From a virus: a stretch of DNA of 53,718 bases. Below are positions 44,775 to 47,888 of this stretch, one piece after another. Position numbers and translations under genes: made by a program. The stretch lies in IMG/VR virus record IMGVR_UViG_3300031414_000029; one strand, 5' to 3'. A model generated the notes under the pieces. That model ran no database searches and was not told the DNA's origin. It saw only the letters and a list, made by a program, of their open reading frames with translations. Positions within the stretch are counted from its first letter, which is position 1; every line of letters starts with the position of its first letter.

Positions 44775-44807
44775 TCTGATCTGACCGGCGTCTGATAAGC
44801 GCGGCGT

Positions 44808-44835
44808 AAACCCGATGTTGTATTCGGGTTTATTT
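44808..44835 (+). terminator. Rho-independent terminator
   Basis: AAACCCGA-N8-TCGGGTTT followed by ATTT. Confidence 0.75.
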
Positions 44836-45509
44836 AATATCCGGAATCCCATTCTGCCAACCACAGGCCAAATTGCCCGAGAGTTGAGAGTGGGCTTCTG
44901 GATGATTTGAATAGCACAATATTCAGGACGAGCATGCACACAGAAATCTGGAATTTTATTATGGCCTGAGAAACCATCGTATGTCCAAGTTTCGTGAGGA
45001 AGTGCATCTGTACTTGTGTGAAAGACGGAACAATTACTCAAATTGCCCGGACTCTTAGAGTCGTCATCCAGAAGTTTTCGTTCGTTAGAGTCGATTATTT
45101 TTACTTATAAAATAAGTGCAAACGATAATGAAATGCGAGCAGCCGCTTAATTAAATTTAAGTGCTCTCCGTGGTCTTTCGATTCCATGTAACCAAATTCG
45201 ACGCAGTGGCCCGCTGTGATTAATAATGGGCACAACTTTACATTTTGAGCTGCATACTTGATTAGACGCGGGAGGATGGCCGATGCCCGTTATGTCATGG
45301 CCCAGAAGTGTGCAGCGTCAAAGTGCAAAGCAAGCACCGGAACGAAATTTTGGCGGGACTAGCCCCCCGCTGTTAAAGTAGTTCCACCTATTCGTATCAA
45401 CTTGCTTAAGGTGAGGTAGTCACTGCAAGTTCGTACAATCGACCTCGGCATGTCGTTAAACGAGCCTCAATTTCATAAGAGAGCTTTAGTGGTTCATTGT
45501 TAATTCAAT

Positions 45510-45619
45510 GCGGGAGTCTGACTAATAGGAAAGTCACGCTCAACAGGAAAAACTGGCGCAAGGAGCGTTAGTAGAATTACTGTTGTTCAATGTAGGTTCG
45601 AATCCTGCCTCCCGCCGCA
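45510..45619 (+). ncRNA. tRNA-like RNA (class II-like, no recognisable 7-nt anticodon loop)
   Basis: Acceptor GCGGGAG 45510-45516 pairs with CTCCCGC 45609-45615. T8 is present. D arm TGAC-TAATAGGAAA-GTCA 45519-45536. Stem CGCTC/GAGCG (45537-45541/45563-45567) closes a 21-nt loop. Extra arm AGTA-GAAT-TACT 45570-45581. Canonical T arm GTAGG-TTCGAAT-CCTGC 45592-45608. Confidence 0.55.
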
Positions 45620-45698
45620 CTAAAGAAGAACCGAAAGGTTACAAATAACACGAGGCGACGGTACGCGCCTACTCTTATTCATTCAACTGGAGACTCCA

Positions 45699-45941
45699 AT
45701 GGAGCAAGAAAAAGTTGCACTGGAGTATTACGATTGTATTATCACTTGCGAGATTGCTATTAAAATGGCGCAGCTTCATGGTGAATATCCAAACCGTATT
45801 CTCCGGTTGTGTTGTAAAGCGTTATGTAAACGCATCGAAGATAAAAGGATTCGTCTAATTATCAAAGGTATTGGCAAAGCTAATTACCCTATCGGTGCAT
45901 TGGCGAAAGTTCGTCGTGAATTTGATGAAGCATTAGGGTGA
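45699..45941 (+). CDS. Hypothetical protein
   Basis: CTGGAGACTCCAATG context. Confidence 0.55.
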   Translation: MEQEKVALEYYDCIITCEIAIKMAQLHGEYPNRILRLCCKALCKRIEDKRIRLIIKGIGKANYPIGALAKVRREFDEALG

Positions 45942-45945
45942 AACT

Positions 45946-46065
45946 TTGGACGATTTAGAATTAGGTGGCATTGACTTCGATGAAATCGAACGTCGCAATG
46001 CTGAAAAAGTCGATGCGCAAGAGGTTGTCGAAGATGAATCTGATTGCGATGGCTGCAAAATTTAA
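45946..46065 (+). CDS. Possible 39-aa acidic ORF (TTG start)
   Basis: AGGGTGA lies upstream of the TTG. Plausible acidic composition (LDDLELGGIDFDEIERR...). Confidence 0.3.
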   Translation: MDDLELGGIDFDEIERRNAEKVDAQEVVEDESDCDGCKI

Positions 46066-46306
46066 AGGTTGGATTGCTACCGCATTCTTATTTATGGTTG
46101 GCGTTGGCCTAGCTTATTTGTCTGGTAAAAAGGATGAAAAGCATTCCAACGAAATCGAAAAGAAGGATGCTGAAATTGAGCAAACCAATGCTGTATCCAA
46201 AGCAGAAGTATCTGCTGCCACGGATGCGAAAAAAGTTACTGAGCGTGTCAATCGCGACAGTGATAGTAATGTTGACGACGAGTTGCAGCGTTTCACGCGA
46301 GACTAA
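46034..46306 (+). CDS. i-spanin (Rz-like) candidate (start moved to ATG 46034)
   Basis: N-terminal TM segment IAMAAKFKGWIATAFLFMVGVGLAYL, then a charged coiled-coil periplasmic part. A lipoprotein ORF is overlapped in the +1 frame. Confidence 0.55.
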   Translation: MNLIAMAAKFKGWIATAFLFMVGVGLAYLSGKKDEKHSNEIEKKDAEIEQTNAVSKAEVSAATDAKKVTERVNRDSDSNVDDELQRFTRD

Positions 46307-46463
46307 AATCGTTGACACAAGCTGTACAAGTTTTAGTTTGATTCTGTTGTCTAAGAAGGAAATTCCTATCTTAACAAAAGAAACCAAACGACAAATTCTC
46401 GCTCATAATTTAATTTACGAGCAGAAATGTTTGCCACCAAAAAGTGGTAAACAGCCTGAGTGA
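46224..46463 (+). CDS. o-spanin (Rz1-like) lipoprotein candidate, overlapping the i-spanin 3' end
   Basis: MRKKLLSVSIATVIVMLTTSC: n-region, h-region, then Cys (non-consensus TTSC lipobox). Classic overlapped spanin architecture. Confidence 0.5.
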   Translation: MRKKLLSVSIATVIVMLTTSCSVSRETKIVDTSCTSFSLILLSKKEIPILTKETKRQILAHNLIYEQKCLPPKSGKQPE

Positions 46464-46682
46464 TATTGTGTGGCCTATCAAGCCGAGGATACGAACCGGA
46501 TTCAGCATGGTTGTTCTGCCGGACACAATTGAACGAAAGCAAGCCTCGCAGTTTACGTGGTTAAACCTGCGTTATCAAAACCCGTCACGAATTATGCCTG
46601 GTTCCAATCGGTAGGTGCCCTTCGGGGCTGAGACACCGTGAGGATTTGTTGGTAATGAACCTCCGAACAGGCACCAAACAAT

Positions 46683-46789
46683 GGGACTATAGTTTAATAG
46701 CCATGCAGAGTTGCAAATCTGTGGACGCGTAAAAACGGTGTGGGGTCCAATCCACATTATGCCTGTCTGGAAACAGGAGAGTCCCGCCA
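46683..46789 (+). ncRNA. tRNA-like module ending in an encoded G-CCA
   Basis: GGGACT 46683-46688 pairs with AGTCCC 46780-46785, then G and CCA 46787-46789. TA at positions 8-9. Internal hairpins: GCAGA-N8-TCTGT 46705-46722 (loop GTTGCAAA), GTGGG-GTCCAA-TCCAC 46740-46755, CCTGT-CTGGAA-ACAGG 46762-46777. Confidence 0.4.
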
Positions 46790-46795
46790 AACAAT

Positions 46796-46888
46796 GGAGT
46801 CGTAGAGTTAAGTAAACCGGTAGTCGCACGCCTTAAACCCGGCTTAAGTGCTTCTATCATTGTCAGCGGTCGCTGGCCGACTCCACCA
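46796..46888 (+). ncRNA. tRNA-like module ending in an encoded A-CCA
   Basis: Perfect 7-bp acceptor GGAGTCG 46796-46802 with CGACTCC 46878-46884, then A and CCA 46886-46888. TA at positions 8-9. GGTAG D-loop-like motif. T-position hairpin GTCAG-CGGTCG-CTGGC 46862-46877. Confidence 0.45.
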
Positions 46889-47275
46889 AATCGAAACTTA
46901 CCCGACAATGTTAGGTTCGATACTTGCCCTGAACATGGAAATAAACTGTTCAACTGTAGGCCACTGACAGTATAAACTTGGTGTGGCAAGAATTTAATCG
47001 GCACACATTAACTTGTAGGTAGCAAGGTGTGCTCGTCAAATAGTCGAGGGAGTGCGCGACTCTAAATAACGAGACTCTAGCGGCATGTCGCGATGGTGGT
47101 GTAAGCCCATGCGTTTGGAAGGTAGACTCCAACTCAAACAAACTACCCTGAATGAAGCAGCTTAGACTTCAGGTGGTCACTTCCTAAAACAGTGTCCGAG
47201 AACATACTCGCCAAAGTTGCGTTGAAATGGACAACAAAGAAAAACCAGCAACCGGAACGTTGTAAAACTACCAAT

Positions 47276-47339
47276 GAGCCCGCTGGTGAGCAGCATATCT
47301 ATAGCACTGTGTGTCTCAGTTCGATACTGAGAGGGTTCC
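47276..47339 (+). ncRNA. Short tRNA-like module (acceptor plus T arm only)
   Basis: GAGCCC 47276-47281 pairs with GGGTTC 47333-47338 (third pair is G-T). Perfect T arm CTCAG-TTCGATA-CTGAG 47315-47331. At 63 nt it is too short for a cloverleaf. Confidence 0.35.
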
Positions 47340-47354
47340 CTAATTCTGGGTTGA

Positions 47355-47417
47355 GTGGCGAAATTGGTAAACGCAAGCTGAAATGCAAAGTTGTTGGTTC
47401 GAGTCCAACCTCTCCCA
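47355..47417 (+). ncRNA. tRNA remnant-like module (Leu-type D arm plus T arm)
   Basis: GTGGCGAAATTGGTAAACGC 47355-47374 closely resembles the D-arm region of bacterial class II tRNA-Leu. Perfect T arm GTTGG-TTCGAGT-CCAAC 47393-47409. No anticodon arm and no good acceptor partner. Confidence 0.35.
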
Positions 47418-47763
47418 CCTGAGCACTATAAAGTTCTGCATCTTTTCAAAATGCAAAAAGCGCTCTGGCATACTGGAGTCAAATCCAGACGGACAGTTTC
47501 CAAACCAAGACGGTGTTCGGAAACGCGGTGGTAAGATTTATTACGGTTGTATCGTACTCAGGGTTTGCCCTGCAACGAGCTGGGACTCCTCACCAGCGAT
47601 TAGAGTGCCCGCCAGCCTCTTCCGAAACGTAATAATGAAATATGCAAGGCAGGGTTTCATGACTAGTTGACACTAGAAATGACGGGTTGTTACGTGTTCC
47701 CGGATGTTCTCCCATATGCGGTTTAGTGATTCCGACGTGCCGATTAGGAATCAAATTTTAAGT

Positions 47764-47843
47764 CTTTTGAGCTGTCCTTTAATTCAGTTAAAGTGTCGTT
47801 AGCTTAGTATTGTTTCCCGTTACGTTAGAGGGCAGCTCAAAAG
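47764..47843 (+). other. Long inverted repeat / 17-bp hairpin upstream of the replication module
   Basis: CTTTTGAGCTGTCCTTT 47764-47780 pairs with AGAGGGCAGCTCAAAAG 47827-47843 (15 Watson-Crick and 2 G-T pairs), enclosing 46 nt. Confidence 0.7.
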
Positions 47844-47888
47844 CCACAAGCTGAGAAATCGTTTTAATACCTATTTAGAGAGAAATCT

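Follow-up and report, generated by a model that had tools for sequence, protein, structure and literature searches.

Non-coding blocks around the spanin genes

The window analysed is a stretch of 53,718 nt from a Loessnervirus-like phage of the Chaseviridae. Its spanin genes lie between two blocks, 44775-45698 and 46464-47888. Gaps bracketing the spanin genes had been described in a sequence-only reading of this DNA, and the same two gaps were seen in all the Chaseviridae genera fetched. Genomes of this family are tightly packed (52-56 kb), and both gaps are kept in every genus. The following features were located, all on the + strand.

44808..44831, +: terminator-like hairpin directly after the upstream gene; a T-rich tail follows its stem (ACCCGA/TCGGGT)
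44848..45072, +: Element D, Loessnervirus-specific multi-helix RNA domain of 225 nt (covariation)
45073..45233, +: Element A, module with a tmRNA-like tag but no tRNA-like domain (covariation, frame conservation)
45118..45150, +: tag-like frame in Element A, 10 codons and a stop, without start codon or Shine-Dalgarno sequence
45510..45616, +: tRNA-like gene 1, 107 nt (Rfam tRNA score of 26.3 bits, short of the gathering score, 29)
45617..45678, +: short two-hairpin module after tRNA-like gene 1 (AACC-GAAA-GGTT; GGCG…CGCC, then a U-rich tail)
46930..47214 (approximate), +: Element B, Chaseviridae-wide; hairpins and candidate H-type pseudoknots in a chain whose middle part varies in length
47349..47420, +: tRNA-like gene 2, without an anticodon arm (Rfam tRNA 37.8 bits for 47349-47417, above the gathering score of 29)
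47461..47600 (approximate), +: Element C, run of hairpins (47473-47488, 47496-47524, 47559-47572, 47579-47597)

Both blocks are non-coding DNA. The absence of a credible ORF, claimed in the sequence-only reading, was borne out: only ORFs of 30-105 aa occur on either strand. Codon periodicity was absent from the block segments (p > 0.05), with 47661-47888 as the sole weak exception; five control genes showed strong periodicity, with p from 1e-7 to 1e-127. Indels in the blocks are mostly not multiples of three and break the frames. The block ORFs are broken in relatives or covered only in part, and tblastn with them gave matches in overlapping frames on both strands, most with stops in the relatives. 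Apart from the weak signal at 47661-47888, neither substitution periodicity, nor frame-keeping indels, nor an ORF conserved in relatives was found in the blocks.

In some relatives, several very small proteins are annotated here (gp36-38 and gp41-45 of Y2, gp46-50 of SSEM1; GenBank ORFs of 30-130 aa). The weak periodicity at 47661-47888 (p = 0.0009) is in phase with a minus-strand ORF, 47590-47754, and another minus-strand ORF, 45101-45235, is open in 11 relatives. Even so, it is very improbable that the blocks encode such proteins. The ORF at 47661-47888 has stops in all relatives, and 63 indels in this segment are not multiples of three against 5 that are. In a set of 50 sequences, the minus-strand ORF that covers Element A is either cut short or diverging freely, and it has no conserved start. 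The functional strand of Element A is the + strand, because its invariant G·U pairs fit that strand only.

All the hairpins listed in the sequence-only reading and its 11-nt direct repeat, CAAATTGCCCG, were found where it had placed them; the repeat is not conserved in relatives. The supposed density of hairpins did not exceed chance or the coding background. Sliding-window folding z-scores averaged -1.0 in block 1, -0.3 in block 2 and -0.9 in the flanking genes, and folding energies of blocks and flanking genes did not differ (Mann-Whitney p = 0.93). Because folding energies match the coding background, hairpin richness judged by eye is not evidence. The blocks are richer in G+C than their flanks, as had been said, but only slightly (0.42-0.49 vs 0.41-0.45).

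Signals acting at the DNA level were also considered. Within the blocks the number of sigma-70-like matches is about twice that in shuffles (11 vs 5.9). The terminator-like hairpin at 44808-44831 was not picked up by a simple terminator scan, yet relatives carry differing, self-complementary stems at the equivalent spot in the alignment; the scan gave a second terminator-like site at 45653-45670. These signals, together with the replication genes that the blocks adjoin, would fit DNA-level control regions (origin, promoters, terminators, recombination sites) in place of RNA genes. We give this explanation very little credence. The consensus promoter of the phage polymerase has no match inside the blocks, the closest being at 42199. 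On the opposite strand the conserved G·U pairs would turn into A·C mismatches, and neither H-type pseudoknots nor a codon-like frame would make sense as DNA signals. Moreover, Element A occupies unrelated genome positions in unrelated phages, always co-oriented with tRNA genes.

Modules shared and shuffled among relatives

The blocks are mosaics: their modules, about 60-230 nt long, are independently shared and shuffled among relatives. In the per-segment sharing map each module is common to a different subset of relatives, and module order can change, being swapped in locus L062. HNH or homing endonuclease genes occupy the equivalent gaps in 4HA13, EaPF7, Aioli and Papaline. No homologue of ~45330-45475, 46960-47025 or 47275-47345 was present in any fetched relative.

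At least four modules, Elements D, A, B and C, have folds supported by covariation; the support for Elements B, C and D comes from only 9-15 related sequences. In Element D, 99.1% of cells are paired over 62 predicted pairs, 11 of which changed on both sides. None of 500 shuffles scored as high, and slid alignments gave 0-2 double-sided pairs. Its closing helix (44897-44906/45063-45072) ends right at the start of Element A. Codon periodicity is absent from Element D, as it is from Element C.

Element B comprises hairpins at 46930-46952, 47080-47091 and 47098-47107, three further hairpins on the 3' side (47153-47171, 47175-47197, 47197-47210) and candidate pseudoknots at 47042-47078 and 47115-47147. 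It has no Rfam match. It is 86-97% conserved in genera with coding DNA so diverged that megablast misses it, and compensatory changes are visible in its alignments. When two of the 3' hairpins were counted, 95.6% of cells were paired and 5 of 9 pairs had changed on both sides; slid controls gave zero double-sided changes.

In the Element C alignment 9 genomes are identical over a stretch of about 35 nt around 47473-47488, and one of the hairpins of the sequence-only reading lies within this stretch. Two others from that reading, 47496-47524 and 47559-47572, and the neighbouring 47579-47597, are kept in relatives through compensatory changes: GUUUCC/GGAAAC to GUUUCUG/CAGAAAC, CAGGG/CCCUG to CAGGA/UCCUG or AGACUG/CAGUCU, and GCUGG/CCAGC to GCCAG/CUGGC. 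The short module at 45617-45678 is 87-95% identical to DNA just 3' of tRNA genes in the unrelated phages Pantoea AAS21, Erwinia KEY and Serratia Kashira.

Two modules are non-canonical tRNA-like genes. The acceptor, D- and T-arms of tRNA-like gene 1 look normal, but its 'anticodon loop' measures 21 nt and its extra arm is long; its Faunus homologue is 84 nt long and scores 31.1 bits. tRNA-like gene 2 has a conserved bulge in the acceptor stem, normal D- and T-arms, and a discriminator A followed by CC, with a mini-hairpin (3 bp, 6 nt) in place of the anticodon arm. When it was aligned with Y2, Fifi44 and Fougasse, the acceptor stems covaried; Fifi44 encodes ACCA. Neither 47349-47417 nor 45510-45616 forms the canonical cloverleaf with a 5-bp anticodon stem and 7-nt loop, and ARAGORN called no tRNA in the window.

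Several expectations of the sequence-only reading can be judged from these results. Covariation among relatives, which it had proposed to look for, supported structure in four separate stretches. The large non-coding RNA locus it envisaged does consist of structured non-coding RNA on the + strand, but not of a single large RNA. An RNA of the GOLLD or ROOL type gave way to the mosaic of modules: GOLLD, ROOL, group I/II introns and RNase P RNA had no Rfam match in the whole window at gathering thresholds, nor in 44300-48300 at E up to 10. One tRNA was the only family match for the blocks in the Rfam scan, with no tmRNA above threshold. The 'at least five' acceptor-stem/T-arm modules did not hold up as tRNAs (none by ARAGORN; by Rfam one above and one below threshold). 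A likeness to a phage tRNA cluster is supported by the two tRNA-like genes and by copies of Element A that lie in other phages beside same-strand tRNA genes.

The blocks are probably the Chaseviridae counterpart of a phage tRNA cluster, that is, an array of separately evolving small structured RNAs on the + strand. Since no promoter lies inside the array, we infer that it would be transcribed by read-through from upstream phage promoters. Host enzymes of tRNA processing may then cleave the transcript into small RNAs.

It is unlikely that the blocks are instead decaying remnants of a tRNA cluster with homing-endonuclease scars, their function limited to one or two residual tRNAs. Decay would account for tRNA-like pieces that are mostly sub-canonical, for mosaic content that differs between close relatives, for the HNH genes in relatives' gaps, for the stretches without homologues and for ordinary folding energies. 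It does not account for an Element A that is 100% identical to that of Y2 between flanking genes at 72-78%, or for Elements A and B kept at 82-97% in genera with genes so diverged that megablast fails on them. The helices of four modules are maintained by compensatory changes, variation in the tag frame is confined to third positions, and the odd architecture of tRNA-like gene 2 is retained through its covarying acceptor stems. The persistence of the gaps in every genus of a tightly packed family also argues against decay.

A tag frame and two pseudoknots in Element A

Element A, present once in the window, consists of a tmRNA-type tag frame followed by two pseudoknots, without a tRNA-like domain. 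It opens with the invariant 5' motif AGUUUUCGU (45073-45081), and an A-rich AUAAGU (45112-45117) stands directly 5' of the frame. The frame reads GCA AAC GAT AAT GAA ATG CGA GCA GCC GCT TAA and would yield ANDNEMRAAA*. A frame-independent pattern found exactly 10 codons in 93 of 93 Element A contexts. At codons 1, 2, 3 and 10 variation falls on third positions only ([0,0,57] over the three positions), and codon 11 is TAA, TAG or TGA across copies. This frame is free of internal stops; of 55 sequences, 44 and 48 have stops in the other two frames. The majority type of Element A has an in-frame stop upstream of the tag and no start codon. The resume-consensus detector of ARAGORN picks out the equivalent sequence and tag in locus L094. 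The tag frame, the most informative feature of the locus, had been missed in the sequence-only reading.

Both pseudoknots are of the H-type. Pseudoknot a is formed by 45169-45173/45184-45188 and 45178-45181/45198-45201, and pseudoknot b by 45202-45207/45213-45218 and 45209-45212/45228-45231, with the conserved loop UGAUUAAUAA. Over their 19 pairs 97.6% of cells are paired and both sides changed in 12 pairs, a level of covariation that none of 500 shuffles reached. The candidate stop-codon hairpin at 45137-45166 is weakly supported: complementary segments occur in each Element A subtype in differing registers, with a mean best stem length of 5.0 vs 4.6 in shuffles. Pairings upstream of the frame (AGUUU/AAACU, CUUUG/CAAAG) are almost invariant or shift in register, and are missing from the short type found in the window. 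The candidate upstream pseudoknot and stop-codon hairpin were thus either invariant or no better than shuffles.

No tRNA-like domain (acceptor stem, T-arm, CCA end) is attached to Element A or consistently adjoins it, and its flanks show no conservation from one phage group to the next. An 'ACCA' that precedes the tag frame is not constant (UCA, CCU and CUA variants occur), and the G3·U70 alanine identity pair is absent, Element A having no acceptor stem. ARAGORN called no tmRNA in the window. Among 135 Element A copies with 700-nt flanks it made only one call, a permuted tmRNA, which was rejected as being built from parts borrowed from ordinary tRNA genes at a distance of 300-570 nt. Rfam tmRNA models match the Element A region below threshold (E = 0.0008-0.04), with 21.6 bits for alpha_tmRNA (threshold 50) and 20 bits for tmRNA_permuted (threshold 47) in the window, and a top score of 33.7 bits (threshold 47) in other phages. 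Beyond the first tag codons, similarity to E. coli ssrA is insignificant (z ~2 or less).

Element A recurs across several phage families and Enterobacterales prophages, usually among same-strand tRNA genes. Over 120 contigs of Enterobacterales phages and prophages carry the module. Within 700 nt of the 135 copies lie 80 tRNA genes, all on the same strand as Element A. In an E. coli O26 prophage its neighbours are the Q antiterminator gene on one side and the holin gene on the other. The module is widespread in phages of enteric bacteria and apparently undescribed so far.

The 5' segments of Element A were compared with E. coli ssrA, a host-type sequence that may differ from the tmRNA of the actual host. 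For 43 of 43 distinct segments the longest complement is at ssrA nt 96-108, inside the tag frame; the segments are not independent events, because the motif core is shared by descent. The complement is extended in differing directions by lineage and reaches 11-12 nt (P < 0.0005 against shuffled ssrA), with only 9 nt for the window's own Element A (P = 0.016). This complementarity to the tag frame of a host-type tmRNA suggests that Element A may act on or through host trans-translation. Because its own tRNA-like domain is absent, Element A most likely works with or against host tmRNA-SmpB. The invariant 5' motif could let it dock on host tmRNA and mask the host tag template, and the docked element would possibly offer its own. 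The tag frame may be translated, its substitution pattern being that of coding sequence; it has no start codon, and translation would therefore need the trans-translation route. Against translation stands the lack of an attached or consistently adjoining tRNA-like domain that would bring the frame to a ribosome.

Such a domain might be supplied in trans if Element A were half of a two-piece phage tmRNA with its partner elsewhere in the array, for example 47349-47420. That conserved tRNA-like gene ends in a discriminator A and CC(A), its mini-hairpin has 9 nt in common with the Chaseviridae tag, and T-arm-like cassettes adjoin Element A in other phages. Natural two-piece tmRNAs and the TLD-only tmRNA of phage DS6A provide precedents (PMC11915505, PMC4131195). 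We nevertheless regard this arrangement as quite unlikely. Charging with alanine needs G·U at position 3:70, where tRNA-like gene 2 has G-C or A-U. The gene is confined to a subset of Loessnervirus, whereas many families have Element A but not this gene. No complementary segments were found to hold the two pieces together, and no partner sequence is common to the families that bear Element A.

Comparison with known systems

Like the locus, the tRNA clusters of T4 and of T5-like phages are poor in ORFs, combine tRNA-type genes with other small RNAs and are co-oriented with their neighbours. Endonuclease genes have invaded the equivalent region in relatives of this locus, a further likeness to such clusters, and the module at 45617-45678 is common to T5-like and other tRNA clusters. 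Unlike those clusters, the locus has almost no canonical tRNA-like gene. It presumably resembles the species 1 and 2 RNAs of T4; BLAST in the phage collection gave no T4 match. GOLLD and ROOL are likewise non-coding RNAs of phages and prophages, sometimes beside tRNA genes, but each is one fold of 400-800 nt, whereas the locus is made of independent modules.

Element A shares with tmRNA (SsrA; RF00023, permuted RF04321) a 10-codon frame that has no start codon and whose first codon is GCA, for alanine. Its tag type, AN(D/E)…A(A/V)A, resembles the E. coli tag ANDENYALAA. AUAA stands at frame positions -6 to -3, which we take to match A84-U85-A86 of E. coli tmRNA. A stop codon in or beside a candidate hairpin and H-type pseudoknots after the frame are further likenesses. 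Element A differs in its missing tRNA-like domain and G3·U70, in its size (only ~160-230 nt vs 363 nt in E. coli), in having two 3' pseudoknots where tmRNA has three, in falling under every Rfam gathering threshold and in being encoded within phage tRNA clusters.

A partial tmRNA carried by a phage is also known from mycobacteriophage DS6A, whose tmRNA is TLD-only (CDS-less); a molecule similar to it is reported to inhibit host tmRNA (PMC11915505, PMC4131195). The two phage RNAs keep opposite halves: that of DS6A keeps the tRNA-like domain without the tag, and Element A keeps the tag and pseudoknots without the tRNA-like domain.

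Setting and coding potential of the two blocks

The best DNA matches of the window are Loessnervirus (Chaseviridae) phages of Erwinia and Pantoea, at ~80% identity, and the genes of the region are on the + strand throughout. Two poorly annotated gaps beside the spanin genes, upstream of thymidylate synthase and primase/helicase, were found in every Chaseviridae genus fetched (Loessnervirus, Sabourvirus, Carltongylesvirus, Faunusvirus, Suwonvirus and one Yersinia phage). They thus belong to the family as a whole and are no oddity of this genome. In the window they are block 1 (44775-45698) and block 2 (46464-47888).

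Chaseviridae promoters are described as not identified in the ICTV profile. The phage-polymerase promoter consensus annotated in phiEcoM-GJ1 matches the window at 1294, 37690 and 42199.

Putative phage RNA polymerase promoters (two or fewer mismatches to the phiEcoM-GJ1-annotated AAACATTAGTTGGATGTGRA)
1294-1313, putative promoter
37690-37709, putative promoter
42199-42218, putative promoter

When both blocks were scanned with this consensus no match was obtained, and phage-polymerase promoters were thus ruled out as the origin of the ultra-conserved short blocks. Since the matches lie only outside the blocks, these are probably transcribed by read-through, on the + strand.

The absence of credible ORFs, put forward in the sequence-only reading, was borne out: 44775-45698 and 46464-47888 contain short ORFs only, on either strand. 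Substitution periodicity was analysed by aligning the window with eight close relatives, and five real genes served as controls. The control genes exhibited strong three-base periodicity (p 1e-7 to 1e-127); none was seen in the block segments, save a weak signal at 47661-47888 (81/135/102, p = 0.0009), whose phase is that of the minus-strand ORF 47590-47754. All relatives have stops in this ORF, and its frame is broken by 63 of 68 indels. Indels in the blocks are mostly not multiples of three. In translated searches with all 28 block ORFs, relatives were matched in overlapping frames on both strands, the majority of matches having stops or covering the ORF partially; at the level of sequence this pattern looks like that of conserved non-coding DNA. 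The sole block ORF open in many relatives, 45101-45235 (minus), would be a 44-aa gene across Element A. It was rejected as not conserved: when the set was widened to 50 sequences, it proved truncated or freely diverging, with no conserved start. Of the ORFs that reach into the blocks, the longest (198 aa, minus strand, 44445-45041) overlaps Element D as well as the end of the upstream gene, and is probably spurious because the region is without codon periodicity. The tiny 'hypothetical proteins' annotated in the gaps of Chaseviridae and other phage genomes are probably wrong.

An array of small RNA modules

The hairpins and the 11-nt direct repeat picked out by eye are present where they had been placed. 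The proposed distinctive hairpin density was not upheld, as the sliding-window folding z-scores of the blocks are like those of the flanking genes, and G+C is indeed above that of the flanks, by a marginal difference only. By-eye hairpin richness is thus not evidence for the locus. A single giant RNA, or a known large RNA, had also been suggested. The Rfam scan gave no match to any known large RNA and the modules are distributed independently among relatives; both ideas were rejected on these grounds. The core intuition of a structured non-coding RNA locus proved right: the locus is real, non-coding and RNA-encoding, and is an array of small RNA modules.

Modules of the array
44848-45072, Element D
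45073-45233 (+), Element A, with a tag frame at 45118-45150 and two pseudoknots
45510-45616, tRNA-like gene 1
45617-45678, 62-nt module
~46930-47214, Element B
47349-47420, tRNA-like gene 2
~47461-47600, Element C

To map the mosaic, the region was compared in 25-nt bins with 14 relatives. The blocks are a patchwork of ~60-230-nt modules, each common to a different subset of genomes, and some stretches have no homologue among the fetched relatives. Segment 45075-45240 is 100% identical to phage Y2, as against 72-78% for flanking coding DNA. Short pieces of the blocks are 82-97% identical in Chaseviridae of E. coli, Yersinia and Pectobacterium, where the genes are too diverged for megablast. 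Two modules are in reversed order in one metagenomic relative. The 45245-45330 module (GGGAGGATGGCCGATGCCC…ATGGCCCAGA) lies downstream of Element A in the window, Faunus, ST32, Fifi44, Fougasse and SSEM1, and upstream of it in Yersinia phage PYps23T. Equivalent blocks of four relatives carry endonuclease genes at differing insertion points; in 4HA13 and Papaline the insertion directly adjoins Element A or replaces part of it.

HNH/homing endonuclease genes in equivalent blocks (L-numbers are locus handles of relatives)
4HA13 (L003), 4653-5084
Papaline (L014), 2246-2686
Aioli (L013), 3046-3513
EaPF7 (L011), 4175-4621

Element D is a 225-nt multi-helix domain of Loessnervirus, with 62 pairs, 99.1% of cells paired and 11 double-sided changes (0/500 shuffles as high). 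Its closing helix ends exactly at the start of Element A, so that in Loessnervirus an uninterrupted ~385 nt of structured RNA stands at the head of block 1. Element B is found throughout Chaseviridae, with hardly any copies elsewhere. It is a hairpin and candidate pseudoknot chain with compensatory changes and a middle of variable length; its two countable 3' hairpins exhibit 95.6% pairing, with double-sided changes at 5 of 9 pairs. The idea that Element B is a group I intron arose from its sequence flavour and the nearby homing endonucleases. It was rejected, as no Rfam intron match was obtained at E up to 10 and neither exons nor a P3-P7 core were identified. Element C includes three of the hairpins noticed by eye, two with compensatory changes and one in an invariant block.

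The acceptor-stem/T-arm modules of the sequence-only reading were not recovered as tRNAs: ARAGORN called none in the window, and Rfam gave one match above threshold (47349-47417) and one below (45510-45616). tRNA-like gene 2 is conserved in three relatives, its bulged acceptor stems covary, and it has a mini-hairpin in place of the anticodon arm and ends in A-CC(A). The layout is that of the tmRNA-type tRNA-like domain, although the G3·U70 pair is absent. The mini-hairpin (GCUGAAAUGC, 47373-47382) has 8 nt (UGAAAUGC) in common with the tag codons of the window (45126-45137), and 9 nt (CUGAAAUGC) with UCU GAA AUG CGA, the tag sequence that is commoner in Chaseviridae; for the 9-mer a rough estimate of the chance expectation is ~0.04. 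In tRNA-like gene 1 the anticodon loop is oversized and the extra arm is long. The 62-nt module that follows comprises a GNRA-capped hairpin and a terminator-like hairpin. It recurs directly 3' of tRNA genes in T5-like and other phages, with 87-95% identity in the unrelated Pantoea AAS21, Erwinia KEY, Serratia Kashira and Yersinia fHe-Yen9-04. The only annotated tRNA of phiEcoM-GJ1 is a 'tRNA-Arg, may contain an intron' (L004 5150-5244; L005 5157-5251), which ARAGORN calls a 95-nt tRNA-Leu(CAG); this adds a further non-canonical tRNA-like gene, located in the E. coli Chaseviridae version of the gap.

Tag frame, pseudoknots and distribution of Element A

A sensitive Rfam scan gave sub-threshold tmRNA matches centred on AUAAGUGCAAACGAUAAUGAA…GCCGCUUAA of Element A. 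The frame there, GCA AAC GAT AAT GAA ATG CGA GCA GCC GCT TAA, encodes ANDNEMRAAA*, and the tag of the E. coli prophage copy is ANDDVVLMAA; the tmRNA tag is ANDENYALAA in E. coli and ANDETYALAA in Salmonella. The frame was rescanned with the pseudoknot core only, because the first pattern forced TAA at a fixed spacing. Among the matches listed, the 10-codon frame was present in 93/93 unique upstream contexts. Those missed by the first pattern have synonymous codons (GCA/GCT, AAC/AAT, GAT/GAC) or another stop (TAG, TGA), and one context outside it encodes ANDNYALAAA. Across 55 unique frames, codons 1, 2, 3 and 10 vary at third positions only ([0,0,57]), and codon 11 is a stop in every case (TAA 51, TAG 2, TGA 2). 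Internal stops are absent from the tag frame; in the other two frames they occur in 44/55 and 48/55 sequences. Positions -4 and -3 before the frame are invariant A. The frame lacks a start codon; eight codons before it, the majority type has an in-frame stop. In one locus the resume-consensus detector of ARAGORN picks out the sequence and the tag. Judged from sequence, this is strong evidence that the Element A frame would be read by ribosomes in the manner of tmRNA.

Two H-type pseudoknots lie 3' of the frame (19 pairs, 97.6% of cells paired, 12 pairs changed on both sides). The observed values were reached in 0/500 shuffles, and slid controls were 29-48% paired. Two invariant G·U pairs assign the RNA to the + strand.

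Element A is conserved across several enterobacterial phage families and prophages. It is present in all fetched Chaseviridae genera except PP101 (partial in EaPF7 and Papaline), in the unrelated phages N4-like EC1-UPM, Salmonella Akira, Klebsiella BUCT610 and Ackermannviridae T765, and in unannotated DNA of ~124 E. coli genomes. Pattern scans of IMG/VR found it in at least ~120 contigs. A scan of species-representative genomes gave 10 matches, of which only 2 are real copies (Pseudocitrobacter and Rouxiella, both Enterobacterales); the others were discarded as chance matches in GC-rich genes. Within 700 nt of Element A copies are 80 tRNA genes, every one co-oriented with the copy but at no fixed distance from it, and the flanks are not conserved between phage groups. 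PP952070.1, 'Staphylococcus phage Pel53', has copies of Elements A and B that are 83-90% identical to those of E. coli Chaseviridae; its host label, Staphylococcus hyicus, looks doubtful.

In non-Chaseviridae phages, lambdoid prophages included, Element A is one cassette among several bounded by repeated complementary arms (CAGGTAAGAGCATT … AGTGCTCTTTCCG). The ends of the array are conserved (5' ATTGGCGAAATCCGGTAAGGGCATT; 3' CCGGAG(T/A)TCAGCACCGGCCACCAC), and some cassettes have T-arm-like hairpins (GGTAGAGGGTTCGAATCCCTACC). In E. coli O26 11368, Element A lies between the Q antiterminator and holin genes of a lambdoid prophage, and the array fills the whole gap. Pairing of AGUGCUCUUUCC with GGUAAGAGCAUU as a long helix that closes Element A was rejected: its arms are absent in Chaseviridae, and the partner is ambiguous because the same arms recur around neighbouring cassettes.

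Cassette array (L-numbers are locus handles)
~3534-4605, E. coli O26:H11 11368 (L181, NC_013361.1); likewise in L022, L033, L097 and L027

Element A, host tmRNA and known tmRNAs

The only invariant stretch 5' of the frame, AGUUUUCG(U), is perfectly complementary to ACGAAAACU, which lies in the tag frame of E. coli tmRNA (GAC GAA AAC UAC). The longest perfect complement fell at E. coli ssrA nt 96-108 in 43/43 distinct 5' segments, the E. coli gene being the one used for comparison with all phages; owing to common descent of the core motif, these segments are not independent events. The extension of the match varies by lineage: CGUAGUUUUCGU (12 nt), UAGUUUUCGUC (11 nt, seen among others in the prophage copy of E. 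coli) and, in E. coli Chaseviridae, GUAGUUUUC. Against shuffled ssrA the 11-12-mers gave P < 0.0005 and the 9-mer of the window P = 0.016. Some copies have a second such segment, UGCGAC, with pairing that spans the host resume codon. Full-length duplex prediction between Element A and ssrA gave z ~0, leaving the 5' motif test as the only usable one. The complementarity suggests that Element A RNA may dock on host tmRNA.

We favour an interaction of Element A with the host trans-translation system, the mode of action being the part that we infer. By annealing to the host tmRNA tag frame, the invariant 5' motif would mask the host template, and in some lineages the second segment would cover the host resume codon as well. 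The phage resume context and tag frame would thereby be tethered to the complex of SmpB with the host tRNA-like domain. The outcome in infected cells would be either rescue of stalled ribosomes with a tag that the phage specifies, or a block of host tagging. Specific docking or tag swap is a minority possibility, yet a testable one, and we regard it as rather unlikely that Element A is such a phage 'anti-tmRNA / tag-swap' RNA, masking the host template and tethering its own tag or blocking host tagging. If true, this would amount to a split, cross-kingdom tmRNA, and to the first known case of an RNA directed at tmRNA.

Recent capture of host ssrA was ruled out by local alignment. The match between Element A and E. 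coli ssrA is limited to AAAAU-AGUCGCAAACGA, and similarity beyond the first tag codons is not significant (z ~2 or less); Element A is therefore not a recently captured host gene. The tmRNA literature consulted (PMC11915505, PMC4131195) lists standard, permuted, intron-containing and CDS-less forms, and takes its phage cases from mycobacteriophages and Bacillus phage G. No Element A tag peptide was found in the literature searched. As far as checked, a tag-bearing, tRNA-domain-less tmRNA-like module, widespread in Enterobacterales phages, is undescribed.

No regular tmRNA was called by ARAGORN in 135 Element A copies with 700-nt flanks, and the sole permuted call was built from pieces of ordinary tRNA genes hundreds of bases off. 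A 'GAAACUG-A-CCA' before the frame was considered as a tRNA-like 3' end and rejected: the ACCA just upstream of the frame varies and is therefore not a 3' end. By definition the tRNA half and the mRNA half of a tmRNA belong to a single molecule, and to our knowledge the known exceptions keep the tRNA half. Element A, in contrast, has the tag and pseudoknots without it, and tools that demand a tRNA-like domain miss this class of RNA. If Element A is translated without a tRNA half, it would represent either an unknown template route to stalled ribosomes or a phage RNA that manipulates host ribosome rescue.
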